Assembly: GCA_964544275.1 (NCBI GenBank)
Contig: CAZIZX010000002.1
Span: 96,100 to 160,099, forward strand
Source of the DNA: an uncultured Gammaproteobacteria bacterium
Lineage (GTDB): Bacteria; Patescibacteriota; Microgenomatia; UBA12405
Length of the DNA: 64,000 nt
Reading direction: 5' to 3'
Shown here: piece by piece, positions 7,895 to 63,774 of the stretch
Numbering within the stretch: position 1 is the first letter of the stretch
How the letters are laid out: every line of letters starts with the position of its first letter
The notes under the pieces: generated by a model
What the model was told of the DNA's origin: nothing
Databases searched by the model: none
What the model saw: only the letters and a program-made list of their open reading frames with translations
Program-made: the position numbers and the translations under genes

Positions 7895-7910
7895 TTTTGT
7901 CGGGGTTGAA

Positions 7911-8531
7911 ATGAAAGGTTTCCCAGTTGGTTTGAGAGAGACAGTTGGAGGACTAAGAGGATTGTATTGTTTGGGAAATGCAGAATTACTAAAGAATATA
8001 AAAATGGTAGCGGTGGTGGGAAGCAGAAGTATGAGTGGGTACGGAAAAAGGGTGGTGAGAGAGTTGGTACCGGAGCTGGTGAAGGAGGGAATAATAATAG
8101 TGTCGGGAATGGCGTTTGGGATAGACGCGGAAGTACATAGGGTGTGTCTGGAAAATGAGGGAAAAACAGTGGCGGTGTTGGCCAGCGGGGTGGATATAAT
8201 CAGTCCCAAGGGAAACAGAGGAATTTATAATGAAATATTGAGTAAGGGAGGGTTGATAATATCTGAATACAAAGATGGAACAACTCCGGACAAGGTTAAA
8301 TTCCTCGAAAGAAATAGAATTGTGGCCGGGTTATCGAAGGCGGTGATGGTAGTTGAGGGTGGAAGAAAAAGTGGGACTCTGGTAACGGCCAGATTGGCTA
8401 GTGATTATGGTAAAGAGGTATGGGCGGTACCGGGAAGGATTGATGACGAAAATAGTTTTACGCCGAATTATTTGATTAAGAACGGGGCGGTACCAATTTG
8501 TGAAATTAATGATATGATAAGCCAGATATGA
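7911..8531 (+). CDS. dprA: DNA processing protein DprA (Smf)
   Basis: Rossmann-like DprA core (VVGSRSMSGYGKRV...SGMAFGIDAEVHR...). Immediately upstream of topA, which is the conserved dprA-topA arrangement. The ORF opens at 7815 and overlaps the PBP2 end; a start at the Met at 7911 was chosen. Confidence 0.7.
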   Translation: MKGFPVGLRETVGGLRGLYCLGNAELLKNIKMVAVVGSRSMSGYGKRVVRELVPELVKEGIIIVSGMAFGIDAEVHRVCLENEGKTVAVLASGVDIISPKGNRGIYNEILSKGGLIISEYKDGTTPDKVKFLERNRIVAGLSKAVMVVEGGRKSGTLVTARLASDYGKEVWAVPGRIDDENSFTPNYLIKNGAVPICEINDMISQI

Positions 8532-11153: not shown

Positions 11154-13430
11154 TTACTCGATGCTGGTACGGCGACTATCGGTTAGAGGGGTAATGTTTT
11201 TTGTTTGAGGTGGTTTTGGAGTTAGTTTTGGTGTTGAATTATTGGGAGAAAGTGAATTTTGTTTTGGTTTGCCCCAACGTTGGCGGGAGATTTGGATAAG
11301 TTTTTGGCGGGCCTGGTTTTTGCAGGAAAGAGGTGGCAGGGTGACGGCATAAAACGGATTAGTGGTTTCAGAGTCGATTGAAAGTTTGTTGATAACTTGA
11401 TAGCGGCCGATTTTGACTAAGTCTTCGGGTGGAAATTGTGGTCCAAATTCTTTGCTTAAGATAAAGGCGTCCTGGTTGCCGACAACGAAAGAGACCATGG
11501 AGCCGACGTTGCCGAAAATAGCGTCCTGAATGGGGCGTTCAAGCTGGGCCATGTATTGATTGGCAACTATCAAATTTAATTTAAATTTGCGGGCTTCGGA
11601 GAGGATTTTGATAAACGAGGTGGTGGCGAAATTTTGAAATTCGTCAACATACAGGTAGAAATCGGACCTGGCCTCGGCTTCCTGGAAAACCCGGTTCATA
11701 GCTGAAAGTTGGATTTGGGTAATTAACATGGCACCAAGAAGAGCGGAGTTGTCTTCGCCTAATTTGCCGGTAGACAGATCGGCAATAAGAATTTTTTTCT
11801 CGTCCATAATTTGCTGGATATTGATTCTGGACTTAGGATGATTGATGGTGTTTCGGATGTTGCTGGAGGCAATAAACTGACCGACTTTGTTTAAAATGGG
11901 GGCAATAGCTTCGTTTTGGAATTTGGGATCCATACGGTTGAATTCATTGATCCAGAAATTTTTGAGAGTTTGGTTTCGGAGTTTGTTGATTACTTTGTCT
12001 CGGAAATTTTTGTTGGTGAGGATTTCAACGATGTCGACCAGGGTGGTATCGGGAGTGTTGACCAAAGTTAAGACGGCGTTTCTTAAAATGTGTTCAAGTC
12101 GGGGGCCCCAAGAGACTTCACCGTAGATTTTTTTGAAAATGGAGATAACGCCTGAAGCGACAAGTTCTTTTTGAGATTCATTTTGGGCTTCGAGAACATT
12201 GAGGGGATAGACGTATTCAGGATCAGCAGGATTGAAATAACAACAATCGTTAATACGATGAGAAGGTATGTAGTCAAGGATGTTATTGCATAAATCGCCG
12301 TGAGGATCGATAACAGCAACTCCACGGCCTTTGCGAATGTCGTCAATGGCCATGTTGGAAATTAAAGTAGTCTTGCCGGTACCGGACTTGCCGATAATAT
12401 ACATATGGCGACGGCGGTCTTCGCCTTGTTTGATGCCAAAGATGGAATCTTTGTTTCGAAACTCAGTTTTGGCAAAAAAGGTTATTTCTTTTTTTTGTTC
12501 TTCGGTAGTATCGTCGGCGACAGGAAGGTTTTCGGGTGGGTCGGAAAACAAATTTTTGCCCCAGGCGATGTTGGGCAGTTTGGTAAGTTTATTGGGAAAG
12601 TGCCAGAGAGCGGAGACTTCTTCGGTGTTGAGAATTTGGGATTTGAGTTTGGTAGAAATTTTACGATTTATGATGCAGTCGGGGAGTTTGTTGCGATTAA
12701 AAAGGTTAGGAGTAAAGGTCTTGATGGAGTTACCGCGGGGAGAGGTAAAGGCTCCGAAAGAGGAGGAAACTGAAGCAATCAGGCTAGGATTGTTAGAAGC
12801 GAGATTGATTTGAGCCAGGATACCGGGGAATTGAATTTTCTGTTCAAATATTGAACGGTCGGGATGAGCTTGGCGTAAGCCTTTTTCTTTGTCAATGACA
12901 ATACCGTTTTGGATAATATCCATTATTGAACTTTGCCAGTTTTTGGAGGCAGGACCGAGGATTATTTGATAGACAAAAAAGTCAGTAGTGCTATTTGATC
13001 GGGAAAGGGGGGCTAGGACGGAAACAAGAGGATCGGTATCGCGGAAATCACGGGCGGTTTTGAGGGGATAATTGTAGGATTTGGAGAGTCCGATTTGGGA
13101 GAAGTTGAGTAACTTGGGATTCTCCAGATCGGTAAAATAGTCCAGGGTATCTTTGGTGATGGCAGAAGGATATTGGGCTAGGATTTGGGATCGGACATAT
13201 TCCATGTTGTCGGTTGGCGCGACGACATAGAAATGAATTTGACCGTGACTAAGTACAATCTCCAGGCTGGCGATGGTCTTTCTTTTACCGCTAAGGCGGT
13301 CAATAAGAGAGGTGGAGCCGGATTGGGAGAAGTTACTTAAAAGTGAGGACATGGCTTCGAGGGTAAATTCGTTTTCTTGAGGGAGGCGGATTTCCAGTAT
13401 TGACAGGTTATTTTTGACGGTGTGCGCCAT
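11154..13430 (-). CDS. VirD4/TraG/TraD-like coupling-type ATPase (FtsK-HerA superfamily), soluble
   Basis: Walker A IIGKSGTGKTT followed about 20 aa later by DPHGD, and Walker B YLYVDEFQNF. No TM segments. Long N-terminal non-ATPase region. Confidence 0.55.
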   Translation of the reverse strand: MAHTVKNNLSILEIRLPQENEFTLEAMSSLLSNFSQSGSTSLIDRLSGKRKTIASLEIVLSHGQIHFYVVAPTDNMEYVRSQILAQYPSAITKDTLDYFTDLENPKLLNFSQIGLSKSYNYPLKTARDFRDTDPLVSVLAPLSRSNSTTDFFVYQIILGPASKNWQSSIMDIIQNGIVIDKEKGLRQAHPDRSIFEQKIQFPGILAQINLASNNPSLIASVSSSFGAFTSPRGNSIKTFTPNLFNRNKLPDCIINRKISTKLKSQILNTEEVSALWHFPNKLTKLPNIAWGKNLFSDPPENLPVADDTTEEQKKEITFFAKTEFRNKDSIFGIKQGEDRRRHMYIIGKSGTGKTTLISNMAIDDIRKGRGVAVIDPHGDLCNNILDYIPSHRINDCCYFNPADPEYVYPLNVLEAQNESQKELVASGVISIFKKIYGEVSWGPRLEHILRNAVLTLVNTPDTTLVDIVEILTNKNFRDKVINKLRNQTLKNFWINEFNRMDPKFQNEAIAPILNKVGQFIASSNIRNTINHPKSRINIQQIMDEKKILIADLSTGKLGEDNSALLGAMLITQIQLSAMNRVFQEAEARSDFYLYVDEFQNFATTSFIKILSEARKFKLNLIVANQYMAQLERPIQDAIFGNVGSMVSFVVGNQDAFILSKEFGPQFPPEDLVKIGRYQVINKLSIDSETTNPFYAVTLPPLSCKNQARQKLIQISRQRWGKPKQNSLSPNNSTPKLTPKPPQTKNITPLTDSRRTSIE

Positions 13431-15166: not shown

Positions 15167-16087
15167 ATGGAAAAAAAGAAGGTAATCAGTAAAACCGTCA
15201 ATCGAACCGGTAAAAGTTTGGTTAAAAAGGCATTGGTAGTTAATTCCCGCAAGCAGTCAAGTATCAATGCAGAACAGGTGAAGAGATTGAATGAAGAAGT
15301 AAAGGCAAAAAAAGAAAAGGTGGTGCAAGGTAGAAAATATCAGGAGAACTTAAAACCGGAAAAGAATGTTAAGGCAGATACCAATAAAAAACCGGATAAG
15401 AAATATGAACTGACGGTTGACATGAAAGATATGCTGAAGGCCGGAGCACATTTAGGTCACAAAGTGTCCAAAACTCATCCGAAAGCCAGGGACTATATAT
15501 ATACTTCGAAGGACGGAATCGAAATATTGGATCTGACCAGCTCTATTAAAGAATTCGAGAAAGCCTGTAATTTTGTTTACAACGCTAAAAGAAACGGTAA
15601 GCAGGTTCTGATGGTAGGTACCAAAAGACAGGCTAGGGAAGTAGTTAAAAGAGTGGCGATGGATGCCGGGGCTGCTTATGTAACTGACAGGTGGCTGGGG
15701 GGGACTATTACTAATTGGGAGGAAATCAGAAAGAATATTAAGAAATTAAAAGATTTGCGGGCCGGAATTGAAAATGGTACTTTTACTGAGCTGACCAAAA
15801 AAGAATTGTCGGATATGCAAAAAGAAATTGGTCGATTGGAAAGGAATGTTGGTGGTTTGGTCAACTTGGACAAATTGTTTGACATTTTGTTTGTGGTTGA
15901 TGCTGGTTTTGAGAAGACGGCTGTTCGGGAAGCCAGACTTCGAGGTGTTTCGGTGGTAGCTATGATTGATACCGATAGTAATCCGGACAAGATTGATTAT
16001 CCGATTCCAGCCAATGACGACAGCGTCAAAAGCGTTAATATGGTAGTTGAAGAAATTGGTAAGGCGATAAAGGCTGCCGGAGTTTAA
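15167..16087 (+). CDS. rpsB: 30S ribosomal protein S2 with an ~85 aa Lys-rich N-terminal extension
   Basis: The S2 core starts at MKDMLKAGAHLGHK (15422). Good RBS (AAGGA) only at the 15167 start. S2 motifs include DRWLGGTITNW. Confidence 0.85.
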   Translation: MEKKKVISKTVNRTGKSLVKKALVVNSRKQSSINAEQVKRLNEEVKAKKEKVVQGRKYQENLKPEKNVKADTNKKPDKKYELTVDMKDMLKAGAHLGHKVSKTHPKARDYIYTSKDGIEILDLTSSIKEFEKACNFVYNAKRNGKQVLMVGTKRQAREVVKRVAMDAGAAYVTDRWLGGTITNWEEIRKNIKKLKDLRAGIENGTFTELTKKELSDMQKEIGRLERNVGGLVNLDKLFDILFVVDAGFEKTAVREARLRGVSVVAMIDTDSNPDKIDYPIPANDDSVKSVNMVVEEIGKAIKAAGV

Positions 16088-16107: not shown

Positions 16108-16566
16108 ATGGACCAAAAACAAATTATTGAATTAGTTAAAAAAATTAGAAGTGAGACGAGTTTGGGGATCATGGAAATAAAAGCGGCCTTGGAAGAAGCC
16201 AACGGTGATGAAAAGAGAGCTAGAGAGATATTGAAAGAGAGGGGATTCAAAAAAGCCGAAAGTAAGAAAGAACGGGAAACCCGACAGGGAAGAGTGGTTA
16301 CTTATACCCATACTACCGGGAAAATTGGGGTAATGATTGAAATCTTGTGTGAGACTGATTTTGTAGCTAAGAACGAAGAGTTTATGGCTTTGAGCCGGGA
16401 TATGGCTTTGCAGGTGGCGGCGATGAATCCGGAATCGGTAGAGAAATTGATGGAGCAGGAGTTCATTAAAGATCCGACTCAAAAAGTTGGTGATTTAGTT
16501 CAGGTCTTGATCGCTAAGTTGGGTGAGAATATTAAAGTGGGTCGAATGGCAAGGTTTGAAATTTAG
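16108..16566 (+). CDS. tsf: elongation factor Ts (short form)
   Basis: N-terminal UBA-like segment (LVKKIRSETSLGIMEIKAALEEANGD), the TDFVAKNEEF motif, and conserved rpsB-tsf synteny. Confidence 0.85.
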   Translation: MDQKQIIELVKKIRSETSLGIMEIKAALEEANGDEKRAREILKERGFKKAESKKERETRQGRVVTYTHTTGKIGVMIEILCETDFVAKNEEFMALSRDMALQVAAMNPESVEKLMEQEFIKDPTQKVGDLVQVLIAKLGENIKVGRMARFEI

Positions 16567-18239: not shown

Positions 18240-18335
18240 TTTTCAGGCTATTTTCATTTTTCTTTGTTGACGGGGGGTTTTAAAGGTGTTTTACTAGTTA
18301 TATTAGCTATTGTTTGCTTGATAATTAGTAAAAAA

Positions 18336-20204
18336 ATGGAAAAGAAGTTGAGGAGATTCAGGAAAAGTTTAGGCTTAGCCCAGATTCCCTTGATCATTGG
18401 TTTGCTGGTAATGGCAGTGGCGATTCCGGTGGCAACCAGGTTAGTAGAACAGAATCAGGATGTGAGGAATCGGGCGGCGAGTGACTGGATTTGTCAGGAG
18501 TCACAGTGTAAAGCAAATTGTGAAGCGCCTTGTACAACTCTACGAGTTTTTGATTCTAATACGGATGTTGGTAGATGTTCTAACGTGAGTAATACAAAAT
18601 CAATAAAGATACATTGTTCAAATACGAGTCCGCCTAAGCCGATTGCTACGGTAGGGCCACAACCATCACCCGCGCCCCACCCGGCTACTCCCATCCCGAC
18701 TCAGGGGACAGTTACACCGACAACCAAACCGACAGCGACTGTGACGACCAAGCCTACAGCAACAGCTACAACCAAACCGGCGGCTACCAGTGTTCCACAG
18801 CCAACGGCAAAGCCAACTTCAGCGCCTAGTGGCGGTACAACTTGCGCATCGAAGGGATTAAAAACATGTCAGGAAGCTTATTCTACCGATCAGGGGTGTT
18901 CGGGAGGTCAGGTTAAAGAATGTGTAAAGTATGGTTGTAATTCGACAGGTCAAGGGGGATCGGGTTGTCCTTTTGACAAAAATGAAAATGGTACTTCTTC
19001 TTGCGGTTCTTGCTTTACTCCTTCAGGCGGGGGTGGTGGGAGTAGCGGTGGTAGTGGGTATCATTCTTGTCCGTCTTCGGACGGTAATCCGAATAAGCAA
19101 GCTTGTTGTGATAGTAGTGGTAATTATGTTGATTGGTGGTTGTGCGGAGGAGCTGGGGATGGTGGTGGAGGACAAACTTTGACATCGTTTAATGGGGTGG
19201 TGGTAGACGAGACGGGAGCGAGATGGGTACCAGGGAATGATGATTGTTCGGCAAAGAAAGGAAGTGTTTCTATTAGTTCGTCTAAGGGGAATGTTAAGTG
19301 GTTGGGTCAAGGGACTCCTGATGCACGTTTTGATGTTACTGGGGTGCCTTTGTCGGAGGTGACGGTGGTGCTGAATCCTCCCGGAGGATGCGGCTACACT
19401 TGTGATAAGTGGAGGATTACTGATGTTGGGGATAATTTGAAATCTTGGAAGGTTGTTGCTGAAGGGAGCGGTTGCACTGTGAAACTTACGCCTTATAAGA
19501 AGGAATATAGGTCCGGTATAACCTTTTTTATGAAAAAAGTTACACCAACCCCTATGGTACCTCCCCGGTTTAATGTAACAATTGAAGGGCCGACAGAAGT
19601 AGTAAGGGGTGAGACGGCGACGTTTATTGCCAGATCGCAAAGTACGGATGTAAAATTAACCAATATTAAATTATATTGGGGTGATAAGGGGGTTGTGGAT
19701 AGTTTATCCGGTTCGATTAATCCATGGGCATTATTTAAAGAATGCAGCGGTAGTAATGTTACTAGTTGTCAGGGAAATTTTCCGACGGACCGTTTTGACG
19801 GGGAATATTATATTGTCGTTAATGCTTCGACTGGTAGCAACGTTCATTGCAGTGGCAATCCTACCTGCCGGAGTTATCCCTGTAGCGGATTTTATGATTG
19901 TGGAACGGGAGATAATATGGTTTTATCATTAAGTGTAGCGCCAACTAGTACGCCTGCATTAGCTCCGACGGCGATGGCTACACCAAAGCCAACAGCTGGA
20001 GTGACTGGTGTTCCGACGGGGACACCGACATTATGTGAAAAAGCCTTAAATGTTAGGCTGGAAGGCTGGAAAACAGAATATGTAGCAAACAGAGGAAGAA
20101 GAGTTTCAGGGACTTGGAATGCTGACGTCAACAGGGATGGTTATGTTGACATAGTGGATCGTTCAATCATTCTAGAATGCTTGATTAAAAACGGTATTAT
20201 GTAA
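18336..20204 (+). CDS. secreted Cys-rich protein with P/T-rich linker, Gly/Ser-rich segment and a C-terminal dockerin-like module
   Basis: N-terminal signal/anchor. TTKPTAT tandem repeats. C-terminal DVNRDGYVDIVDRSIILECLIKNG fits the dockerin Ca-loop pattern DxNxDGxVDxxD. The ORF opens at 18264. Confidence 0.5.
   Translation: MEKKLRRFRKSLGLAQIPLIIGLLVMAVAIPVATRLVEQNQDVRNRAASDWICQESQCKANCEAPCTTLRVFDSNTDVGRCSNVSNTKSIKIHCSNTSPPKPIATVGPQPSPAPHPATPIPTQGTVTPTTKPTATVTTKPTATATTKPAATSVPQPTAKPTSAPSGGTTCASKGLKTCQEAYSTDQGCSGGQVKECVKYGCNSTGQGGSGCPFDKNENGTSSCGSCFTPSGGGGGSSGGSGYHSCPSSDGNPNKQACCDSSGNYVDWWLCGGAGDGGGGQTLTSFNGVVVDETGARWVPGNDDCSAKKGSVSISSSKGNVKWLGQGTPDARFDVTGVPLSEVTVVLNPPGGCGYTCDKWRITDVGDNLKSWKVVAEGSGCTVKLTPYKKEYRSGITFFMKKVTPTPMVPPRFNVTIEGPTEVVRGETATFIARSQSTDVKLTNIKLYWGDKGVVDSLSGSINPWALFKECSGSNVTSCQGNFPTDRFDGEYYIVVNASTGSNVHCSGNPTCRSYPCSGFYDCGTGDNMVLSLSVAPTSTPALAPTAMATPKPTAGVTGVPTGTPTLCEKALNVRLEGWKTEYVANRGRRVSGTWNADVNRDGYVDIVDRSIILECLIKNGIM
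18723..18794 (+). repeat. 3 x 24-nt tandem repeat encoding a TTKPTATx linker
   Basis: The three units are ACCAAACCGACAGCGACTGTGACG, ACCAAGCCTACAGCAACAGCTACA and ACCAAACCGGCGGCTACCAGTGTT. Confidence 0.7.
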
Positions 20205-20217
20205 ATAGGGGAAAACA

Positions 20218-21414
20218 ATGAAAAACAAAACAACAATTTTGGTGATGTTGATACTGGCTGTTGCTTTGGTAGCGGTAATGGCAGTGATAAGCAGTCGGCA
20301 GGATTTGCGAAGAAGTGCCCATTATGCCAAGGGAAGTTTGTATTTAACTCCGACAGATAATGAGGTGAGGGTGGGGGATGATATTAATTTAATTTTAAAA
20401 GCTGTTCCCGGCCCAGATAGTCCGAAAATCCAAAATGTTCAGGCTTTTATCTGTTATAACAAAAGTATTTTGACGTTGGGTGATGATACAGTGGATGCTT
20501 CGGGAAATTATGTTAATGATGGTAGCTTGGCAAATATTAGGGTGATTAATAAAAACGTGTTTTTGGAAGAGCCGATAGTTTTTTTTGAGGATATTGCCGC
20601 TAAAAGATGCTTGAATTTGACAGTGGTTTCCAATAGAGCGTCAGAATTAACCAGTGAGGTGGTTGATGTGGCTTCAATTAAGTTTACAGCAATAGGTGAA
20701 GGAAACGGGGCGGTGGAGATCGTAAAAGCGGATTCGGTAATGTCGGGTTATATAGCCGATAATCTTGATAAAAGCATTGAAATTACAAACGTGGAAAATG
20801 CTAATTATTTGGTAAGGGCAGCACAGGAAGAGCCGCCAGTCGGGGAAGTTCCTTGGTTGAATTTCAAAATGGCCTTTATGGGAGTGAACAGCGAGTCATC
20901 TTGTGCAGTTAATTGGCCGATGACGTTGACAGTTTTGGGAGGTGGAGTGACCCGAGTGTACAGCAATGTTAAGGGTACAGTAGTAAGTGGAACTGAGGGT
21001 CCGGTGGTGTATAACGTAAGTTTGCCGTTGACTGGTTTTAATCAGACAGAGAAGGTGGCAGTGCTAATTAAGGGACCAAAACATCTTCAGGTAAAATATG
21101 CGGTTGATGGACAAAAGGGCTTTTACGGTGCTGCGGGAGGGGAATTGACATTGGCCAAAGACAAGGCAGCAAGTAAAGTTTACGATTTTACAGGTTATCC
21201 TTTGTTGGCGGGCGATGTGACGGGTAAAAATGGAATCCAGGATGGGTTAATTAATGGATTGGATTTTCTTTTCGTCAGAGATAAAGCCATAGCTAGGGCA
21301 AGGGATTTGCAGAATATGGACATGGCTGATTTAGATGGAAATTGTGTTCATAATTCGCTTGATATTACTTGGTTAATGCAATCACTTGCTGAAAGGCAAG
21401 AGCAAATGAATTAA
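20218..21414 (+). CDS. secreted protein with a cohesin-like beta-sandwich module and a C-terminal dockerin-like module
   Basis: N-terminal signal anchor. Cohesin-like segment (LYLTPTDNEVRVGDDINLILKAVPG...IQNVQAFICYNKSILTL). C-terminal dockerin-like ADLDGNCVHNSLDITWLMQSL. Confidence 0.4.
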   Translation: MKNKTTILVMLILAVALVAVMAVISSRQDLRRSAHYAKGSLYLTPTDNEVRVGDDINLILKAVPGPDSPKIQNVQAFICYNKSILTLGDDTVDASGNYVNDGSLANIRVINKNVFLEEPIVFFEDIAAKRCLNLTVVSNRASELTSEVVDVASIKFTAIGEGNGAVEIVKADSVMSGYIADNLDKSIEITNVENANYLVRAAQEEPPVGEVPWLNFKMAFMGVNSESSCAVNWPMTLTVLGGGVTRVYSNVKGTVVSGTEGPVVYNVSLPLTGFNQTEKVAVLIKGPKHLQVKYAVDGQKGFYGAAGGELTLAKDKAASKVYDFTGYPLLAGDVTGKNGIQDGLINGLDFLFVRDKAIARARDLQNMDMADLDGNCVHNSLDITWLMQSLAERQEQMN

Positions 21415-21429
21415 TATTAAAGGAGAAAA

Positions 21430-22038
21430 ATGATAAACAGTGAATTTGGAAAAACATTATTACCATTAGTTTCGGTGGTGGTTATTTTGCAGAGCGTTGT
21501 TTTGGTGAATAGTATTCGGGATAAAAGAAATATTGGGGTGCAGACATTGAGAAACGATGTAGACACTACTGTGGCAAGGGTAAGCGAGGCGAAAGTGTTC
21601 GATATGGTATTTGGTGTAGATTCAAAATCGATGGTTGTCGGTAAAAAATATGCGATTGACTTGAGTTTGCTGAGCAAGGAGCAAAGTAACGTTGGGTCAG
21701 TTGAAATTTATGTAAAATATGATCCAAGCGCTTTTGAGGTGAGTAATTTAAGTTATGATGGCAAATTACAAAAGCCAGATGTTTTGATTGCAGGGGAAAA
21801 GAAGGGGTTAGTGGTGGCAAATTATTATTCTCTAAATCCGGCCGGGTTTGCTTTTAATGAGGCAGAACACTATAGTCTAGTCATGTTTGATGTTAAGCCG
21901 AAGAAGGAAGGAAGCTTTGATTTTGAAATTAGTACTGGTAATGCCGGTGATGGTTCTGCTACCATGATTTTAGACAATAATACAAAGAAGGAATTGCTCT
22001 ACTCGAGCAATAAATTAACTGTTAATGTAACTAAGTAA
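21430..22038 (+). CDS. secreted protein with a cohesin-like module
   Basis: Signal anchor. Cohesin-like hallmark segment (GSVEIYVKYDPSAFEVSNLSYDG). Confidence 0.35.
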   Translation: MINSEFGKTLLPLVSVVVILQSVVLVNSIRDKRNIGVQTLRNDVDTTVARVSEAKVFDMVFGVDSKSMVVGKKYAIDLSLLSKEQSNVGSVEIYVKYDPSAFEVSNLSYDGKLQKPDVLIAGEKKGLVVANYYSLNPAGFAFNEAEHYSLVMFDVKPKKEGSFDFEISTGNAGDGSATMILDNNTKKELLYSSNKLTVNVTK

Positions 22039-22730
22039 TGAAGTATAAAAAAATTATAATTATAGGGTTAATAGTAATGGGAATGTTGGTTTCGGCCAGA
22101 GGGAGGGTGGCGCAGGCTGCGCCTCATTTTACGTTGTCACCGGCGACATACTCGGTTTCTGTGGGCAGTACTTTTGTGGTTGATCTGGGAGCCGATTCGG
22201 AGACTCAAAGTATTATTGCTATGGATGTAGTGGGTACTTTTGATCCAGTTAAGTTAGAGGTGGTATCAGTTGAGAAGAATAATACGACTAACTTTAATTT
22301 TGTGTTTGATACGACAACCCCAATTATACAAAATACCAACGGGAGGTTTGAGGTAACCTTGAGTCCGAGTAGTACCAGTGTTTATGACGCTCAGGTAGTG
22401 AAAGGAAGTTTGTTGAGGGTTAGGTTTAAAGCTAAAGCTGCTGGTGTGGCGAGTGTTAATTTGTCTTGTCAGGCTGGTTCGGTAACTGATACCAATATGT
22501 TTAATCAGAATTCAGAAGATGTAGTTAGCTGCGCTGCCAATCAAAGTGGTTCGTTTACACTGACTGCAGTGGGTGGTGATGGCGATGTCGTGAGTGATAC
22601 AACTACGGTGGCGACTACGGCCGCGCCGACGAGCGAGTTGCCGCAGACTGGTGGTATTGCTTCGACGATAGGATTGGTGTTGTTCGGGACTATCAGTGTA
22701 TTAGGCGCTCTTATGCTGAGGTTTTTATGA
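22038..22730 (+). CDS. cell-wall-anchored (LPxTG) protein with a cohesin-like module
   Basis: Signal peptide. Cohesin-like segment (VSVGSTFVVDLGADSETQSIIAMDVVGTFDPVKLEVVSVEK). C-terminal LPQTGG followed by a hydrophobic stretch and a charged tail, the classic sortase sorting signal. Confidence 0.45.
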   Translation: MKYKKIIIIGLIVMGMLVSARGRVAQAAPHFTLSPATYSVSVGSTFVVDLGADSETQSIIAMDVVGTFDPVKLEVVSVEKNNTTNFNFVFDTTTPIIQNTNGRFEVTLSPSSTSVYDAQVVKGSLLRVRFKAKAAGVASVNLSCQAGSVTDTNMFNQNSEDVVSCAANQSGSFTLTAVGGDGDVVSDTTTVATTAAPTSELPQTGGIASTIGLVLFGTISVLGALMLRFL

Positions 22731-23467
22731 AGGGAAGGGTGAATGCCAAAACTATCATTGTTTTGATAATTATGCTTTTGGTGGTGGTGTTGGGTGTTTT
22801 GGGAGCAAAAACGGTTCAAACATACTTGAGCGGTGCAACTGAAGATGTACTGCCCAGAAATGTAGTACCAACATCGAGTGAGGATGGTAGAAGTGTAGTT
22901 ATTTCCTGGATGTCGGACAAAGAATCTATGGGGGTGGTAGAGTATGGAACATCTCCGGCGTCTTTATTACTTCGGGCAATAGAGACGGGTCAAGTGACAA
23001 GCCACAAGGTAACTTTGACGCCGCTTAAACCGGGAACAGTTTATTATTTTCGGATAAAGATTGGCGAGGAGATATTTGATAACAGTGGTATACCCTATTC
23101 GGTTAAGACTAATGAGGATAAAGGAGTTGGAGTGGAAACAGAAGTAGAGACTCCAACGATAGAGTTAAAGCCGACGAGTGCGCCGGCGGGAAGCGGGGGA
23201 GATACTGAGGTGATAAGCAGCACATGCAACAGACAAACAGACTATAACGGTGATGGTGTAGTTAATGCGCTGGATCACATCCAGTGCATGAAAGGAGGGA
23301 CAGAAGGTGTTGTATCCGTGACTCCAACTCCGGCGGGAACGACACCGGTGATTCCATCCGAGGCAAGTGCAGCCAGTGAAGGTGAATGCAAGGCGGGGGT
23401 TGATTATGACGAAAACGGAGTGGTGAACAGCTTGGACATGATCAAGTGTTTACAAAATAAGAGATAA
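22727..23467 (+). CDS. secreted protein with an FN3/PAP-N-like domain and two dockerin-like repeats
   Basis: Signal anchor. FN3-like segment (VISWMSDKE...GTVYYFRIKIG). DYNGDGVVNALDHIQCMKG and DYDENGVVNSLDMIKCLQNK fit DxNxDGxVNxLD. Confidence 0.45.
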   Translation: MKGRVNAKTIIVLIIMLLVVVLGVLGAKTVQTYLSGATEDVLPRNVVPTSSEDGRSVVISWMSDKESMGVVEYGTSPASLLLRAIETGQVTSHKVTLTPLKPGTVYYFRIKIGEEIFDNSGIPYSVKTNEDKGVGVETEVETPTIELKPTSAPAGSGGDTEVISSTCNRQTDYNGDGVVNALDHIQCMKGGTEGVVSVTPTPAGTTPVIPSEASAASEGECKAGVDYDENGVVNSLDMIKCLQNKR

Positions 23468-32134: not shown

Positions 32135-33316
32135 TTGAATATGGAAGGAAAAACGATAAGAGGCTTTTTGTTGGGTTTGTTATTGGGTGGTGTTTTGGTG
32201 ACTGGAGTGGTGGGTGGGGCTGCGGCTGACAGGGTTTTTGGATTTAGTTTTTTGGATAAGTTAATTAACAGGAGTAGTCAGGGTGGTCCGGCATTGATAA
32301 CCGACAGGGAGGTAGTAAATGAAGAATCGGTAGTGACATCAGTGGTGGAAAGTGCGACGCCAAGTGTGGTGACGGTGTCAATTAGTAAAACTCAAGTTTA
32401 TAGCGCTGATCCATTTGATTTTTTTGGAAGTTTTTTTGGAATTCCCCGAGGCGAGACGCGTCAGGAGAATATCGAACAGGATATCGGGACGGGATTTGTT
32501 ATATCGGCCAGCGGGTTGATTGTAACGAATAAACATGTGGTATCAGACACCAATGCTAAGTATCGGGTGGTGGCTGGCAAAGATGAGGTGATTGAAGTAG
32601 AAAAGATATATCGTGATCCGACGAATGATTTGGCAATTTTGAAAGTCAACAAAACCGGATTGATCCCGGTGGAAATGGGGGATTCGGATGAACTAAAGGT
32701 GGGTCAAACAGTGATAGCTATCGGGACGGCTTTGGGTGAGTTTAGATCGACAGTAACAACCGGAGTAATATCGGGATTGGGAAGGGGTATTGTGGCGGGT
32801 TCTCCGCTGTCTGGATCCGAGAAACTTGATAATGTTATCCAGACCGATGCGGCAATTAATCCAGGAAATTCGGGAGGGCCTTTGTTCAATAGTCAGGGAC
32901 AGGTGATCGGAGTAAATGTAGCAGTGTCTCAATCAGGGCAAAATATTGGATTTGCTCTGCCGATAAATTTGGTAAAAGATTCAATAACTAATTTTGAAAC
33001 AACCGGGGCGTTTGATAGACCGTATATGGGCGTTTCCTATAGAACGATATCCAAACAGGCGGCTTTGTTAAACGAAGTCCCTGCAGGGGCTTTTGTGCAG
33101 GAAGTTATTGAGGGTAGTCCGGCAGCAAAGTCAGGGATAAAGGAGGGGGATATTATAGTTGAGATGGATGGGAAAAAACTTGGCGAGAATGAAGATTCGT
33201 TAACTGAAATTATTAACAAGAAGAAAATAGGTGATTTGGTGAAGGTGAAATACTGGAGGAATGGAGAAGACACAACTGTAGATGTCAGACTGGAACAGCG
33301 GGATATGAGTAATTAG
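32135..33316 (+). CDS. htrA: HtrA/DegP-family serine protease with C-terminal PDZ
   Basis: Catalytic triad context ([19 protein letters not shown]...D...[11 protein letters not shown]) and a PDZ domain. Confidence 0.85.
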
Positions 33317-34035
33317 AGGGTTGTTGTTTGGTTGCTGTCCAGAACGGAGAGTTCCAATAAAAGATCTTCGAGGTCGCCTTGCATAGTTTTATCTAGATTA
33401 AATGTTTTGTCTATCCTGTGGTCTTTTATTTGATTTCTGGGAAAATTATATGTTCGGATTTTGTCGGCCCTATTTCCCTGGCCAATAGAGGCCCTGGTGC
33501 CGGTAATTTGAGAGGTTCTTTTTTCTTCTTCAATTTGCCAGAGTTTGGCTCGGAGTAGGTCCATGGCGATTTCACGGTTTTGTTGTTGAGACCGTTCCTG
33601 ACGGACGGAGAAAGTTAGCCCAGTGGGTTTGTGAACAATTCTGACAGCAGTTGACACCTTGTTGACATTCTGGCCGCCTTTGCCCCCAGCCCTTGATGCA
33701 GTCATGTCGACATCATCGGGGTTGAGGATGACATCTTTGGCTTCAATCTGAGGATAAACAACCACTGAGGCAGTAGAAGTTTGGATACGGCCCCTTTTTT
33801 CAGTAAGGGGGATTCTTTGGACACGATGGGTGCCGGTCTCGAACCTCAATTGGTTATAAGCATCGAAACCCGAAATTTTTATAATGTTGTCGTCAATCTG
33901 GGAAACCTTCCAACCAACTTTATTGGCATAGCGAATGTACATGTTTTGCAGGTCCTGGGCCCAAATAGCCGCTTCTTGGCCTCCAGGACCCAAATAGAAC
34001 TCCAAGATGGCTACATGGGAATCTATGATGGGCAT
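33313..34035 (-). CDS. prfA: peptide chain release factor, RF1-type, lacking N-terminal domain 1
   Basis: GGQ ([13 protein letters not shown]), PxT-type tripeptide (QRIPLTE), and the RF1-specific [16 protein letters not shown] segment. Only 240 aa and starts 14 nt after the rpmE stop. Alignment begins at about residue 107 of E. coli RF1. Confidence 0.65.
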
Positions 34036-34049
34036 AAGAAGTTTGAGGT

Positions 34050-34286
34050 TTAAGCTTTTTTGGCTTGTTTTTTGGCAAATTCTTGACCTTGGGTAACTTT
34101 GCGCTTGAATTTATCAATACGACCGCGGGTGTCAACAAATTTTTGTTGGCCGGTAAAGAAAGGATGACATTTGGAGCAGACTTCAACTTCGATTTTTTCG
34201 ACAGTTGAGCCGGTAGTGAAGTTGTTGCCGCAGGTGCAAGTAACCTGACATTGTGAATAAAATTTTGGGTGTATACCTTGTTTCAT
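34050..34286 (-). CDS. rpmE: 50S ribosomal protein L31
   Basis: [10 protein letters not shown]...CTCG...[10 protein letters not shown] is the L31 type A signature with a CxxC zinc motif. Confidence 0.85.
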
Positions 34287-34305
34287 AGCTTCTTATTATA
34301 CCAGA

Positions 34306-35571
34306 TTATTGGCGATTTAAAATTTTTATTAGTTGTTCTCGAGAAACTTTGCTTTGTTTGTTTTGGGCTAAATCTTTGATAACAACTTTATTTTCCTTGA
34401 TTTCATCGGGTCCAATGATACAAAGGTAGGGTATGGCCAAATCAAGAGCGTATTTGATTTGTTTACCCAACTTGTCGGCCTTGGGGTAAAAAACGACACT
34501 TAAATTATTTTGGCGCAAGAAATTGGCTAATTTGAGGCTATCTGTTTCAGTTTCTGGGTCGAAATTGGCAACGAGAATATTAATTTTGGTTTTGGGTAAG
34601 TTAGGTAGTAAGTTTAGCTCGATGATGCAGTCAACAATGCGGTCCAGACCGATAGTAGTACCAACGGCAGGAATATCCGGACCACCCAGATCTTTGACTA
34701 AACTATCATAACGGCCGCCTCCAGTAATTGATCCGATTCTTGGTTCTTCGACATAAGTTTCGAATATTGGTCCAGTATAATAATCCAAGCCTCGAACCAT
34801 GGTCGGGTCAAAAGTATAGGCCGTGTCCGGTACGTCAAAGTTTTTGATTTTGGAAAACATTTCCTGAAGGTATTCGTCAGGTTGAGCTGATTTGATATAT
34901 TCAAAAAGACGGTTGATTGAGCCTGGTTGGAGGCCTTTACCGACGAGTTCATTTTTTACTCCTTCTTGACCTATTTTCTGGAATTTATCGAGACTTTGTA
35001 GTACAGAATTTTGTTGTTCTTTGATGCCGGATTTTTCGATAATTTGCTTTAGGACCTGGCGGCTGTTGATTCGGATAGAATATTTTTTGAAATTGAGTTT
35101 TTCTAAAACTGTATAGATAACGGCTATTGTTTCGGCGTCGGAAAGGGGAGAAGAAGACCCGAAAGTATCTATATCACATTGAAGCACTTCACGATAGCGG
35201 CCTTTCTGGGGTTTTTCCGAGCGCCAAACAGGTTGGATTTGGTAACGCTTAAAAGGGAGTGGCAGTTTGTTGGAGTAAAGACTGAGGACTCTGGAAACTG
35301 GTACGGTCAAGTCGTAGCGAAGACCTATTTGGCGCTGACCTTGGTCCTGAAAGGTATAAACGAGCTTGTCGGCTTCAGGGCCATATTTGCCCAGAAGAGT
35401 GGCGGAATATTCAAGTGAAGGTGTCTCCAGGGGGAGAAAGCCGAAACTTTCAAAAACTTCAATAAGTAAGTTTTTGACGTAATTTCTGACAATCATTGTT
35501 TCGGGAAGAAAGTCACGAAAGCCTTTTAGTGTTTGTGATTTGTTTTTGGCGGGTGGATTTACTCGATTCAT
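34306..35571 (-). CDS. hisS: histidine--tRNA ligase
   Basis: Class II motifs (GFRDFLPE, RYDLTVP, YYTGPIFE, GGGRYD) and a C-terminal anticodon-binding domain. Confidence 0.9.
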   Translation of the reverse strand: MNRVNPPAKNKSQTLKGFRDFLPETMIVRNYVKNLLIEVFESFGFLPLETPSLEYSATLLGKYGPEADKLVYTFQDQGQRQIGLRYDLTVPVSRVLSLYSNKLPLPFKRYQIQPVWRSEKPQKGRYREVLQCDIDTFGSSSPLSDAETIAVIYTVLEKLNFKKYSIRINSRQVLKQIIEKSGIKEQQNSVLQSLDKFQKIGQEGVKNELVGKGLQPGSINRLFEYIKSAQPDEYLQEMFSKIKNFDVPDTAYTFDPTMVRGLDYYTGPIFETYVEEPRIGSITGGGRYDSLVKDLGGPDIPAVGTTIGLDRIVDCIIELNLLPNLPKTKINILVANFDPETETDSLKLANFLRQNNLSVVFYPKADKLGKQIKYALDLAIPYLCIIGPDEIKENKVVIKDLAQNKQSKVSREQLIKILNRQ

Positions 35572-35593
35572 AGTTTGATTGTAGCATTAAGTA

Positions 35594-35613
35594 AAAAGCC
35601 CCGAAGGGGCTTT
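35594..35613 (-). terminator. GC hairpin (AAAGCCCCTTCGGGGCTTTTT on the minus strand) between tRNA-His and the hisS start
   Basis: Perfect 7-bp stem with a GAAG-type loop and a T5 tract on the minus strand, ending about 22 nt before the hisS ATG. Either a terminator or an attenuator. Confidence 0.45.
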
Positions 35614-35614
35614 G

Positions 35615-35689
35615 GGTGGTACACCGGACTTGAACCGGCAACCTTCTGCTCCACAGGCAGATGCTCTAACCAATTGAGCTAGTACCACC
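35615..35689 (-). tRNA. tRNA-His (anticodon GTG), with encoded G-1 and C73 discriminator; CCA not encoded
   Basis: Manual cloverleaf. G-1 plus the GTGGTAC/GTACCAC acceptor stem, D-arm GCTC/GAGC, anticodon stem TCTGC/GCAGA with loop CTGTGGA, T-arm GCCGG-TTCAAGT-CCGGT. Confidence 0.8.
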
Positions 35690-35748
35690 ATAAATTAGGG
35701 ACATGGATAGTATAGGCGAAAAAGAGGCAAAATTAAAGTATTTGAGAA

Positions 35749-36447
35749 TTATTGTTCAGGTACCGGAGTTGGGGTGGGTATACTTTGTTGAAATATTTTG
35801 ACTGCGTAAAATGTTTTGGCCATAGTCGGGTGGGGCTTAATGATACAAATTATTTTTTGTCCCGTTACTATGGTAGTATCAGTCGGTTTTTTGTTATTTT
35901 TGTCGAGGATTATAGTTTTGGTGTCGGTAGTTATCTGGTATTGCTGGTCTTTGTTTTGGGTGGGTATGAGGACAAAAACGGGAGAGGAGACGGAGGCATC
36001 GACGACAGCGCCGATTAAAACTTGTTCCTGACTTTGAATTGTTTTTATGTCCATAAAAATAAGTCTTTTGGTTTCTAGGACGTTGGGTTCGGTAAGATAA
36101 CCCATAGCCAGTACATCCTGACCAACCTGTATCTTGTCAAACTGAGTTTTGTTTCTTTTGGAATCAATATAAGTTGTATCGTCGTTGACGATAAGGGTCA
36201 GGTTTTGGGAATTGTGGGTTATTAATATTTGATTTTGGTTTATTTGCGATACTGTGCCGATATGACCCTTTTTGGTTGATTCGGGATCGGTAATGTCTTT
36301 AATTTTTTCCAGGACTTTATCCTGAACCACCTGTCTTATTTTTTGGATTTCATCCAGATTGACTGGGTTGGGGGTGGGTGTATTGGCGTAGACAAATTGG
36401 GTGGTAAAAACAAGGGAAAGAATAAGGCTAATGATGGTAATTATCAT
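35749..36447 (-). CDS. hypothetical secreted/membrane-anchored protein
   Basis: N-terminal hydrophobic anchor, a Pro/Thr linker and beta-rich repeats. No catalytic motif. Confidence 0.3.
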   Translation of the reverse strand: MIITIISLILSLVFTTQFVYANTPTPNPVNLDEIQKIRQVVQDKVLEKIKDITDPESTKKGHIGTVSQINQNQILITHNSQNLTLIVNDDTTYIDSKRNKTQFDKIQVGQDVLAMGYLTEPNVLETKRLIFMDIKTIQSQEQVLIGAVVDASVSSPVFVLIPTQNKDQQYQITTDTKTIILDKNNKKPTDTTIVTGQKIICIIKPHPTMAKTFYAVKIFQQSIPTPTPVPEQ

Positions 36448-43411: not shown

Positions 43412-43614
43412 ATATAAATTATACCTAAAGATAGGTTAAAACTTAATATTTGTGATTTAGAAAGGGGATTGTAGGTGAGTTGAAGCAGCTTTAGGGTTTG
43501 GTTTAGATGAAAGTTCGTGAGTGAGGTTTTGCGGTTAGTTGTGGCAATGATTTAGCGGGATTTGGGATAAAAACTGGGAAAAATATTTTGACAAGGGTGG
43601 GAGAGTAGGGAAGT

Positions 43615-43650
43615 GTCCTATAATATTTATATCCTATAATAATATTATTT
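43615..43650. repeat. bipartite CCTATAATA...CCTATAATAATATTATT motif with a palindromic AATAATATTATT core, upstream of the recombinase gene
   Basis: Seen in sequence. Related copies occur at 45382-45404 and 45478-45519. Confidence 0.45.
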
Positions 43651-44271
43651 TCACGGTATTGGTAATAATTTTCACATAATTATATGATATACAATGATAT
43701 AGTCTGTGTGGAAAAGTTAGAGGATGATGAATGTATCAGGAGAAGTGCTTGTTTGTAGTGAGAGTAGAGGGGGTAAGCAGTCAAATAACAAGCAAGCGAA
43801 GAAAATTAAAAAAGTAATAAAGTGGATGTGTTGGTAAGTGATAATATATACCTTCCCTAAGCAGGAGGAGGGTATCTTTGCTATGTCGCACAATGTATCT
43901 TTTACGACTAGGAAGCTGGAAAAAGGGAGGGGAGGTAGCGTGGATTTATTTTCTAAATTATTTAAAAATAGTTCCTGGTATTTTGGTAATTAAAGTTTTG
44001 GGGATTTTAAAAATGGCATTATTTGTCCTCTGGCGACTTTGGATCCATCTCAAATTGTCAGGCATAAATTTGATTTTTGACTCCCCTGAAGAGAAAATCC
44101 GGGGATATAGATAAAAATAACGAAAAGATAGGTAAAAAATGATATGACTTCACCAGAGGCTCTGTAATTAAAGATTTGAACAAAATGATATTCAGTATCC
44201 TTGGTTTTGGTAAATTTGAGCTAAGTTCGACAAAAATTGTGACAAACAAATAAAACTGTTAAGATGAAGTT

Positions 44272-45207
44272 ATGGAAAATGATTTAAGAGTTCTTGTTAG
44301 AAGATTTTTGGAATATCTGGAAGTGGAAAGAAACTGCTCGAAATTAACAATCAGGAATTATGAGCACTATCTTGATGTATTACTAAATTATTTGTCAGAG
44401 GGAAAAGAAGAAAAGGTTTTGACGATTTTTGATGTGAACGTTGAGAGTGTGAGGAAGTTTCGATTATATTTGAGCCGGCAGAAAGGAGTCAAGGGAGAAA
44501 TGAAACCGGTAACTCAGGGGTATTATATTATTGCTCTAAGGTCGTTGCTGAAGTGGTTGGTGAAGAATGATTATGTGGTTTTGCAGCCGGAAAAGTTGGA
44601 AGTACCAAAGAGTAAAGATCATTCATTAAAGTTTTTGGACGATAGTCAGATGGACAGGCTTTTGGGACAGCCGTTGTCGTCAACGATTAATGGCCTGCGG
44701 GATAAGGTGATATTGGAATTATTGTTTTCTACGGGCTTGAGGGTGTCGGAGTTGGTGTCCTTGGATCGGGATCAGGTAGATTTAGCGACGCGTGAGTTTG
44801 GGGTTGTGGGCAAGGGTGGTAGGTCGCGAGTGGTATTTATTTCGAAAAGAGCAGCTGATTACATGGATAAATACTTAAAAAACCGAAGGGATCACTTCAG
44901 ACCGCTGTTTATTCGGTATTCGGGTAAAAGAGATGTGGTCGTCAGTGACCAAGGTATGAGGTTGACAGTAAGATCGGTGCAGAGATTGGTCAAAAAATAT
45001 GTTAGGCAGGCTCGCCTACCGGTTGAGGCCACACCCCATACTTTGAGGCATTCGATGGCGACTGATTTGTTGAGGGCCGGAGCCGATTTGAGATCGGTGC
45101 AGGAAATATTGGGACACAAAAATATTGCCACCACTCAAATTTATACCCACGTGACAGATGCCCGGCTGAGGGAAATTCATGAAAAATTTCATAAAGGTAA
45201 TAAATAA
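44272..45207 (+). CDS. XerC/XerD-like tyrosine site-specific recombinase
   Basis: Catalytic residues in context: R (GLRVSEL), HxxR (HTLRHS) and Y (TTQIYTHV). N-terminal SAM-like core-binding domain. Confidence 0.8.
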   Translation: MENDLRVLVRRFLEYLEVERNCSKLTIRNYEHYLDVLLNYLSEGKEEKVLTIFDVNVESVRKFRLYLSRQKGVKGEMKPVTQGYYIIALRSLLKWLVKNDYVVLQPEKLEVPKSKDHSLKFLDDSQMDRLLGQPLSSTINGLRDKVILELLFSTGLRVSELVSLDRDQVDLATREFGVVGKGGRSRVVFISKRAADYMDKYLKNRRDHFRPLFIRYSGKRDVVVSDQGMRLTVRSVQRLVKKYVRQARLPVEATPHTLRHSMATDLLRAGADLRSVQEILGHKNIATTQIYTHVTDARLREIHEKFHKGNK

Positions 45208-45381
45208 AAGGTGGTGCCGGGCAGTATCCTTATAGTAGTGGTTTAGCAGGAGATGTCAGTGTACGAATGCAATTGTGATGTGTACTAGTTACTTATGGTT
45301 TAATTTATCCGTATCTTAGGTTAATATATAAATTGTGTGCCTGATTAGCAGTAGTGGTTGGTAACTGCTAATATCCCCCAC

Positions 45382-45519
45382 CCTATAGTTAATGACCTAT
45401 AATTTTGATACGACTCCCCTACCCTACCGATTTATTAAATAAAAAATTTAGCCAAAAGTGTGAACAATATTATTAATTGTCCTATAGTAATTGGTGCATT
45501 AATCCTATAATATTATTAG
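45382..45519. repeat. two further bipartite CCTATAGT..CCTATAAT motif pairs plus CCCCTACCCTA-type C-rich repeats between the recombinase and the gyrA 3' end
   Basis: CCCTATAGTTAATGACCTATAAT at 45382-45404. TGTCCTATAGTAATTGGTGCATTAATCCTATAATATTATTAG at 45478-45519, which contains the palindrome ATAATATTAT. Confidence 0.45.
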
Positions 45520-45561
45520 TCCCCTACTCTGATTACTAAGATGGTGACAGTCTAAGGAAGT

Positions 45562-60744: not shown

Positions 60745-60753
60745 TTAAAATAT

Positions 60754-63038: not shown

Positions 63039-63084
63039 TAGTCAATAATGATTGTTAACAAGCAATTAATTGTTAAATAAATAG

Positions 63085-63774
63085 ATGAAAAGAAAATTAA
63101 GATATACACAGGGCTTTACCCTGGTGGAGTTGTTAATTGTTATCGCACTGATCGCTATTTTGGCGGTAGGTATCTTGGCAACCATCAACCCGGTGGAACA
63201 GAGGAATAAAGCGAGTGATTCGAACACGTTGAATGATGCAGGTGAAGTGTTGAACGCTTATGAGAGGTATTATGCTAATACGAATTATTATCCGTGGATG
63301 ATTATTGATAATACCTATTTGACTGATACGGCCTATGGTACAGTGAGTAACAGAATTGGTGGAGGACTTTGTGGTACGAATACAGCAACTACTAATTCGC
63401 AGACAACTTGTTCAGGTTATGATTATCAGGGAGGGTTAATTGCAACCGATGAGTTGAAAGCTTCGTTTTTAAATAAGGGCTATACGTATAATGAAGGTTC
63501 TGTACCGGCAGGTACTACTTATAACTTGTTGAACATGTTGTTTGTCTTCAAGACTGGGGCTGAGCAGAATAACTCGATATATGTGTGTCATGTACCTAAA
63601 GCCAAGGCTAACAGGACTAGTGCTAACAGGTTGAAGGTGATTACGTTTGATGTAAATGGTACTCCAAGTGATCTTTCAGACGCGCCGGCTAGTGCTTTTG
63701 ATGCCAGTGGGAATCCAGTTTCCACCTACACTTTTCAAGATGTAGCCACGTCGCTATTTAAATGTGTGCCTTAG
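63085..63774 (+). CDS. type IV pilin (prepilin-type N-terminal cleavage/methylation domain)
   Basis: Class III signal RYTQG/FTLVELLIVIALIAILA. Variable C-terminal domain with Cys. Confidence 0.75.
   Translation: MKRKLRYTQGFTLVELLIVIALIAILAVGILATINPVEQRNKASDSNTLNDAGEVLNAYERYYANTNYYPWMIIDNTYLTDTAYGTVSNRIGGGLCGTNTATTNSQTTCSGYDYQGGLIATDELKASFLNKGYTYNEGSVPAGTTYNLLNMLFVFKTGAEQNNSIYVCHVPKAKANRTSANRLKVITFDVNGTPSDLSDAPASAFDASGNPVSTYTFQDVATSLFKCVP

Follow-up and report, generated by a model that had tools for sequence, protein, structure and literature searches.

We analysed a window of 64,000 nucleotides (nt) from contig CAZIZX010000002.1 of an uncultured, ultra-small bacterium of the Microgenomatia (Patescibacteria), and found that it encodes a release factor 1 (RF1) of only 240 amino acids (aa), which consists of domains 2, 3 and 4. 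This gene, here designated prfA', is probably the organism's own prfA, which has lost domain 1 and a hairpin of approximately 10 residues in domain 2 but still encodes a working release factor (RF) specific for UAA and UAG. The loss of domain 1 from RF1 is not peculiar to this window; it is a lineage-wide trait that is common in two large groups of the Candidate Phyla Radiation (CPR). The conservation of the protein was assessed using the best 120 matches among 5.8 billion proteins, which were aligned together with the window protein (the family alignment, n = 121). The gene and its motifs are as follows.

33313..34035, minus strand: prfA', 240-aa RF1 made of domains 2, 3 and 4 only, with an ATG start and a TAA stop at 33313-33315
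33973..33990, minus strand: GPGGQE (aa 16-21), with G16, P17, G18, G19 and E21 invariant in 121 of 121 family members
33802..33810, minus strand: PLT (aa 76-78), the RF1-type PxT 'tripeptide anticodon', with P76 and T78 invariant in 121 of 121
33781..33783, minus strand: Gln85, where other RF1s have the decoding His of GRIHTS, from the family alignment (n = 121)
33670..33678, minus strand: GGQ (aa 120-122), which is the catalytic motif of domain 3 and does not vary among the 121 family members
33412..33456, minus strand: the RF1-type RTYNFP..DHRI motif (aa 194-208), located after the switch loop, as read from the sequence

Pfam, NCBIfam and Protein Data Bank (PDB) alignments agree that the product is an RF1-type class I factor without any of domain 1, as the initial annotation had proposed. 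Just profile positions 98-194 of 194 of the Pfam PCRF model were matched, the first half being unmatched, and the RF-1 domain that carries GGQ is complete (profile positions 4-116 of 116, E = 3.5e-34). When the protein was compared with the NCBIfam models, prfA (TIGR00019) ranked first, followed by prfB, prfH and ArfB. The prfA score was 277 bits against a cutoff of 423.25; the alignment spans profile positions 112-351 of 361, and it is the missing match to the N-terminal third that keeps the score under the cutoff. The prfB score was 192 bits against a cutoff of 370, and the protein contains PLT where RF2s have SPF, so that it is not classed as an RF2. Scores for prfH (68.6 bits, cutoff 166.65) and ArfB (42.5 bits, cutoff 100) were also under their cutoffs, the ArfB match being confined to residues 100-134, i.e. 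approximately 35 residues around GGQ.

A PDB sequence search (E-values of 1e-50 to 1e-63) aligned residues 5-229 with residues 107-343 of Escherichia coli RF1 and residues 7-230 with residues 86-321 of Thermotoga maritima RF1. The protein therefore begins at the position equivalent to approximately E. coli residue 107, as the initial annotation had stated. Correspondingly, columns 1-117 of an alignment with full-length RF1s are blank for the window protein. Compared with the canonical RF1s of E. coli, Thermus thermophilus and T. maritima, domains 2, 3 and 4 align end to end with 40-50% identity, and the PxT, GGQ and RTYNFP..DHRI motifs, the position downstream of rpmE and the predicted fold are shared. 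The window protein differs from them in lacking domain 1 and the domain 2 hairpin of approximately 10 aa, and in having Gln in place of the decoding His. An AlphaFold model of the 240-aa protein (mean predicted local distance difference test score, 79.6) best superposes on the ribosome-bound, extended form of RF1 (9mtq and 4v63; TM-score on the query, 0.76-0.77), compared with a TM-score of 0.57 for the closed crystal forms.

The residues expected to read the stop codon and to catalyse release, which the initial annotation had already recognized in PLT, GGQ and RTYNFP..DHRI, are under strong conservation. G18, G19 and E21 of GPGGQE are invariant also in comparison with full-length RF1s, and we take this G.GG.E segment to be the tip of helix alpha5 that reads U1 of the stop codon. 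Q73, P76, T78, E79 and T86, namely PxT and its associated decoding residues, are invariant across the 121 members, and the middle residue of PxT is V, I, L, A or T. In the RTYNFP..DHRI motif, R194, Y196, N197, D205, H206 and R207 are invariant in the corresponding alignment. Residue 85 is Gln in 90 of the 121 members, including the window protein, and His in 31, as it is in the other RF1 lineages aligned. The domain 2 hairpin is absent from the Shapirobacteria/Amesbacteria branch, to which the window protein belongs.

These last two features raise the possibility that prfA' is a decaying or sidelined RF1, most termination being carried out by RF2 or by a factor of altered specificity, for example if the His-to-Gln replacement shifted the stop codons that are read. 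Such an explanation would fit the replacement of an otherwise universal decoding His in three-quarters of the family, the additional deletion in domain 2, and the fact that the RF2 of CPR bacteria is full length and far better conserved (62-73% identity for 118 of 119 matches; see below). However, identity between the family members and the window protein is 68-85%, and GGQ, PxT, Q73, E79 and T86 are invariant, which argues for purifying selection on decoding and catalysis. Furthermore, TAG, which RF2 cannot read, ends 15 of the 60 non-overlapping open reading frames (ORFs) of at least 90 aa in the window (TAA ends 36 and TGA 9). The chemistry of PxT rejects G at the second codon position, which also counts against a shift in specificity. 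We therefore consider decay or sidelining of this RF1 unlikely.

Locus, orthology and authenticity of the short gene

The genes around prfA' that bear on its origin are listed below.

34036..34049, minus strand: spacer of 14 nt that separates the rpmE stop from the RF1 start and has the same sequence in two independent assemblies
34050..34286, minus strand: rpmE, encoding ribosomal protein L31 (78 aa; Pfam L31 positions 1-63 of 65), directly upstream of prfA'
34306..35571, minus strand: hisS, part of the conserved neighbourhood and also found in the loci of relatives
35614..35688, minus strand: tRNA-His (GTG), upstream of hisS
32135..33316, plus strand: gene for an htrA-like serine protease, convergent with prfA', the two gene ends overlapping by 4 nt (33313-33316)

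The same arrangement recurs in relatives as (tRNA-His)-hisS-rpmE-RF1, convergent with htrA and an S41 peptidase gene, which are followed by the genes for S18, single-stranded DNA-binding protein and S6. The RF1 encoded at this position varies in length, from 331 aa (L007 and L008) through 303 aa (L006) and 256 aa (Amesbacteria, L004 and L005) to 240 aa in the window and 236 aa in L001, an 823-kb contig from the Joint Genome Institute. In the alignment with full-length RF1s, these proteins form a graded series from which the N-terminal helices have been removed step by step. The L31 gene lies directly upstream of the RF1 gene in most CPR loci, whatever the length of RF1, and in 11 of 60 non-CPR loci, indicating that the rpmE-prfA adjacency is ancestral. 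The ORF at 33313-34035 is thus the positional orthologue of prfA. A scan of positions 33000-36000 for promoters and terminators yielded no more sites than shuffled sequence.

The initial annotation had considered that a full-length prfA may lie elsewhere, with this copy a PrfH-like paralogue; more broadly, prfA' could be a specialised rescue-type paralogue similar to PrfH or ArfB. PrfH (RF-H, the partner of RtcB2) is a class I RF homologue of approximately 200 aa that has GGQ and also lacks domain 1 (PMC1586002). ArfB (YaeJ)/ICT1 likewise has a GGQ domain without domain 1, and some family members have been named 'release factor-like protein' by NCBI. In addition, our survey of RF genes in this genome covers the 64-kb window. 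However, the profile scores favour RF1 (277 bits, compared with 69 for prfH and 42 for ArfB), and PxT and the RF1 decoding residues that are altered in PrfH (PMC1586002) are kept. The gene for PrfH invariably has an rtcB-like gene upstream as its partner, and PrfH acts in the rescue of damaged ribosomes, whereas no RtcB gene adjoins prfA', whose neighbours are rpmE and htrA. ArfB, of approximately 140 aa, lacks the codon-reading domains 2 and 4, both of which are present in the window protein, and has a basic C-terminal tail. The locus is the ancestral rpmE-prfA locus, where relatives encode longer RF1s, and no second RF-family ORF was detected in the 64-kb window or in any of the 88 RF1 loci fetched, each of which contains a single one. 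From its position and scores, a PrfH-like paralogue is therefore a quite improbable identity for prfA'.

An artefact, whether an assembly error, a frameshift, a wrong start or a split gene with domain 1 as a separate ORF, is highly improbable, and the ambiguity of start calling is the point in its favour: for P0001, one gene caller placed the start at a TTG that lies 14 codons inside the ORF, which gives 226 aa. The ATG is the better start, because the residues ahead of this TTG are conserved. Met1 and Pro2 are each kept in 114 of the 121 family members, and the family N-terminus, MP(T/I)IN(P/S)N, runs directly into the first beta-strand of domain 2. As noted in the initial annotation, there is no space for domain 1, since rpmE ends at 34050 and occupies the sequence beyond the 14-nt spacer; ahead of the ATG, the RF frame stays open for just 25 codons, which lie within the 3' end of rpmE. 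A hisS protein identical to that of the window is also encoded on two short contigs that were assembled independently from SRR8925753 and SRR27197518, and the 1150 bases that span rpmE, the spacer and the RF gene contain 0 mismatches between the window and both assemblies. Moreover, the best 120 homologues are all 226-246 aa in length and, where named, belong to Shapirobacteria or the 'Patescibacteria group'. Because the junction is identical in two assemblies and the short form is the rule among the 120 homologues, assembly and frameshift errors, which the initial annotation had wished to see checked, do not account for it. All truncated loci examined contain an in-frame stop 12-31 codons upstream of the G.GG.E motif. 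The split-gene version was rejected using hidden Markov models (HMMs) that represent domain 1 as found in 53 full-length and 9 intermediate RF1s: in the 64-kb window and 13 short-RF1 loci, they detected no separate domain-1 ORF, and the sole match (E = 0.004), to the coiled-coil hairpin of ribosomal protein S2 (rpsB), was judged to be spurious.

Shortened RF1 and full-length RF2 in CPR bacteria

To describe the extent of shortening, we counted the residues ahead of the G.GG.E motif, with 60 RF1s sampled by a broad genome scan serving as the non-CPR control. All 60 of these have 112-134 residues before the motif, compared with approximately 15 in the window protein. CPR RF1s fall into four classes. 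The shortest, with 10-15 residues, is found in Shapirobacteria, Gottesmanbacteria and several metagenome-assembled genomes named 'Patescibacteria'. Amesbacteria and L018 have 29-33 residues, and many others, Kaiserbacteria among them, have 67-93. A class of approximately 120 residues is represented by L044, and the RF1 of the Peribacteria locus L079 has 99-122. A second family of short RF1s was obtained using P0123 as seed, which returned 120 proteins of 230-255 aa from Parcubacteria, named Zambryski-, Lipton- and Colwellbacteria, Paceibacterota and Minisyncoccia. The initial annotation expected a natural domain-1-less RF to be unusual. This holds for the non-CPR RF1s sampled, all of which keep a long N-terminus, but not for the two CPR groups, in which the form is common.

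In a neighbour-joining tree of the common core, which is rough and has no support values, short and intermediate RF1s are intermixed in both a Microgenomates-like and a Parcubacteria-like group. Because short forms stand beside intermediate ones in both groups, the tree suggests that domain 1 may have been completely lost several times independently, from an already shortened ancestor. The best-scoring representative at the 50% cluster level, P0121, is a 477-aa RF1 homologue that was matched in two stretches, as would be expected of an RF1 carrying a large internal insertion. We found no description of a domain-1-less RF1 in CPR bacteria in the literature searched, which did not extend to subscription literature. 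The short-RF1 sequences themselves, which number in the hundreds among related CPR bacteria, are already public under varied annotation.

The window also shows a marked strand disparity in composition. Its plus strand (positions 1-64000) contains 18354 G (28.7%) and 9027 C (14.1%), and the GC skew ranges from +0.16 to +0.50 in each 2-kb bin, independently of gene orientation. For genes on the plus strand, the third-position GC skew is approximately +0.3 to +0.65; for those on the minus strand it is -0.36 to -0.68, and the amino-acid composition of the proteins changes along with it. A comparable disparity has been published for Microgenomates of the order UBA1400 (Kadnikov et al. 2020, PMC7143001). 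The Shapirobacteria-like L001 and L002 have the disparity of the window, whereas the other short-RF1 CPR loci do not; strand disparity and short RF1 are therefore independent traits.

RF2 presents a different picture. TGA is used as a stop in the window, as the initial annotation stated, ending 9 of the 60 ORFs, and several of these stops sit in ATGA overlaps. Given this usage and the full length of CPR RF2s, it is a reasonable deduction that the genome contains an RF2. We searched metagenome contigs for RF2 loci using a degenerate DNA pattern for E.G.HRLVR.SPF and obtained at least 120 loci, mostly non-CPR. Among these listed matches, no N-terminal truncation was seen in any RF2 locus that is uninterrupted by a contig or locus end. 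Wherever the regular expression located the motif, at least 111 codons were open before it, and two complete RF2 ORFs, of 371 and 390 aa, had no regular-expression match.

Locus L126, which lies on a 792-kb contig, shows the gene order LytR_C-x-x-RF2-x-ftsE-ftsX and was assigned to CPR on the basis of gene order and homologues; its RF2-x-ftsE order is the same as that in the cultivated Saccharibacterium Southlakia ML1. The best 120 homologues of this RF2 are named Saccharimonadales, Woesebacteria, Microgenomates or Patescibacteria. All 120 contain SPF and are 336-373 aa in length, with 103-139 residues before the motif. From Saccharimonadales to Woesebacteria, identity is 62-73% for 118 of the 119 non-self matches, and the closest, P0397, is 84% identical. 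In sampled CPR bacteria, therefore, RF2 retains domain 1 and is well conserved, whereas RF1 is eroded.

In the CPR RF2 loci L126, L211 and L212, the genes run prfB-small ORF-ftsE-ftsX, of which prfB-x-ftsE is as in Southlakia ML1, and ftsX is followed in L211 and L212 by a gene for an M23-type peptidase. Upstream of prfB, all three loci have a LytR_C gene, and L211 and L212 have tgt beyond it; several other genes intervene in L212.

Neither the 64-kb window nor the 88 RF1 loci contained an RF2 gene, and a comparison of the RF1 and RF2 match lists gave no contig that carries both an RF2 and a short RF1. A search by third-position skew, an amino-acid index and two look-ups did not recover an RF2 from a genome with the strand disparity of the window.

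Proposed termination without domain 1

Previous work provides a basis for considering how such a factor may function. Domain 1 is the least conserved domain of class I RFs (Baranov et al. 2006, PMC1586002), and it connects the two subunits at the edge of the A site (PMC6742477). According to the account in PMC1586002 of the study by Mora, Zavialov, Ehrenberg and Buckingham (2003), domain 1 is dispensable for codon recognition and hydrolysis, a truncated RF1 works in vivo, and nucleotide exchange on RF3 requires domain 1. The engineered E. coli RF1 and RF2 described there, in which domain 1 is gone and the rest is intact, keep codon specificity and release activity and lose stimulation by RF3. 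They are the best functional model for the natural short RF1. They differ from it in being laboratory deletions in an RF3-containing organism, whereas the form in the window is natural, fixed and lineage-wide, and is restricted to RF1. A reviewer of PMC1586002 remarked that domain 1 is seemingly more important for RF2 than for RF1.

Domain 1 normally forms a bridge between the subunits close to the L11 stalk, and RF3 requires it in order to act; the short RF1 would therefore bind, decode and hydrolyse as a minimal RF with the shape of a tRNA. It would then exit the ribosome spontaneously through intersubunit rotation, followed by ribosome recycling factor (RRF) and elongation factor G, without RF3. 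The frr gene is present within the window. RF3 is dispensable and missing from several phyla, and RFs can dissociate spontaneously through intersubunit rotation (PMC6742477). RF3 is probably also absent from these reduced genomes, which may have relaxed selection on domain 1 of RF1. The reading of UGA stops would fall to a separate RF2, which has kept domain 1 in the CPR genomes sampled. Altered termination and recycling, as the initial annotation suggested, is something that we infer.

In Southlakia ML1, for which a complete gene table has been published (PMC10633639 supplement), RF1 (355 aa) and RF2 (360 aa) are both essential and PrmC is present, whereas RF3 does not appear among the genes listed. 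In this bacterium the gene order is htrA-prmC-prfA, whereas no prmC lies between htrA and prfA' in the window. Using an HMM built from non-CPR neighbour genes, we detected no PrmC match in the 64-kb window or near the truncated RF1s, and only L014 matched among the CPR loci.

Several points weigh against prfA' as a working RF1. UAA/UAG release by the 240-aa protein is a predicted function; the protein scores under the curated prfA equivalog cutoff; the decoding His is replaced by Gln in most of its family; and the search of this organism for further RF genes was made within the window. In addition, termination without RF3 does not in itself entail a short RF1. Thermus, Thermotoga and Chlamydiales (PMC6742477) and Saccharibacterium ML1 (PMC10633639) terminate without RF3, and unlike in the window, domain 1 has been retained in such bacteria (T. 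maritima RF1, 342 aa; ML1 RF1, 355 aa). Because RF3-less Thermus, Thermotoga and ML1 keep domain 1 of RF1, the loss of RF3 alone is no explanation; it is permissive, not sufficient.

A broader proposal extends to much of the CPR, and we advance it tentatively, as a possibility about which considerable doubt is in order. UAA/UAG termination there may be performed by a minimal, tRNA-shaped RF1 without the domain for L11-stalk contact, subunit bridging and RF3 coupling, this domain having been whittled down and lost several times independently in Microgenomates and Parcubacteria, with RF2 keeping it.

Other features of the window and significance of the short RF1

Two further translation genes in the window are of unusual size. 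The tsf ORF (16108-16566, plus strand), for elongation factor Ts, encodes just 152 aa and matches Pfam EF_TS positions 1-76 of 204; its product may be a second shortened translation factor. The ORF for ribosomal protein S2 (15167-16087, plus strand) is 306 aa in its longest form, with the Pfam S2 domain from residue 89, and thus has an apparent N-terminal extension of approximately 88 residues when counted from the longest ORF start.

Downstream of these, three large ORFs without Pfam matches (18264-22038) precede a pair of adjoining plus-strand genes, one with a cohesin-like domain (22038-22730) and the other with a purple-acid-phosphatase-N and a dockerin-like domain (22727-23467). A dockerin-type gene occupies the same place in the relatives L001 and L002. 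The window also encodes a VirD4/TrwB-like coupling ATPase (11154-13430, minus strand), a type IV pilus block with PilB-like, PilT-like, PilC-like and prepilin genes (59005-63774, plus strand) and DprA (7815-8531, plus strand), which, as judged from sequence, make up a putative toolkit of the DNA-uptake or conjugation type. A tyrosine recombinase of the XerC/D or phage-integrase type (44272-45207, plus strand) adjoins gyrA-gyrB, and its flanks (43412-44271 and 45208-45561) contain no ORFs of at least 90 aa.

The finding has a practical consequence for annotation. Short RF1s have been variously named 'PCRF domain-containing', 'release factor-like' and 'hypothetical'. TIGR00019 belongs to the GTDB marker set (PMC12281837), and since short RF1s fall under the curated prfA cutoff, many CPR genomes may be counted as lacking this marker.

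The dispensability of domain 1 was already known from engineered deletions, and the short form is the norm of its lineage; the asymmetry between RF1 and RF2 and the apparently repeated losses add weight to the observation. A natural and long-fixed deletion that runs through lineages of one of the largest radiations of bacteria shows that evolution has used this freedom, and for RF1 only. The short forms of CPR bacteria are ready-made minimal RF1s for biochemistry and cryo-electron microscopy, and they offer a comparative handle on the role of domain 1 when RF3 is absent and on the difference between RF1 and RF2. If the broader proposal is true, CPR bacteria would represent a natural experiment in which domain 1 is essential for RF2 and not for RF1, and their ribosomes would run an asymmetric, RF3-free termination, possibly with decoding re-tuned by the His-to-Gln replacement.

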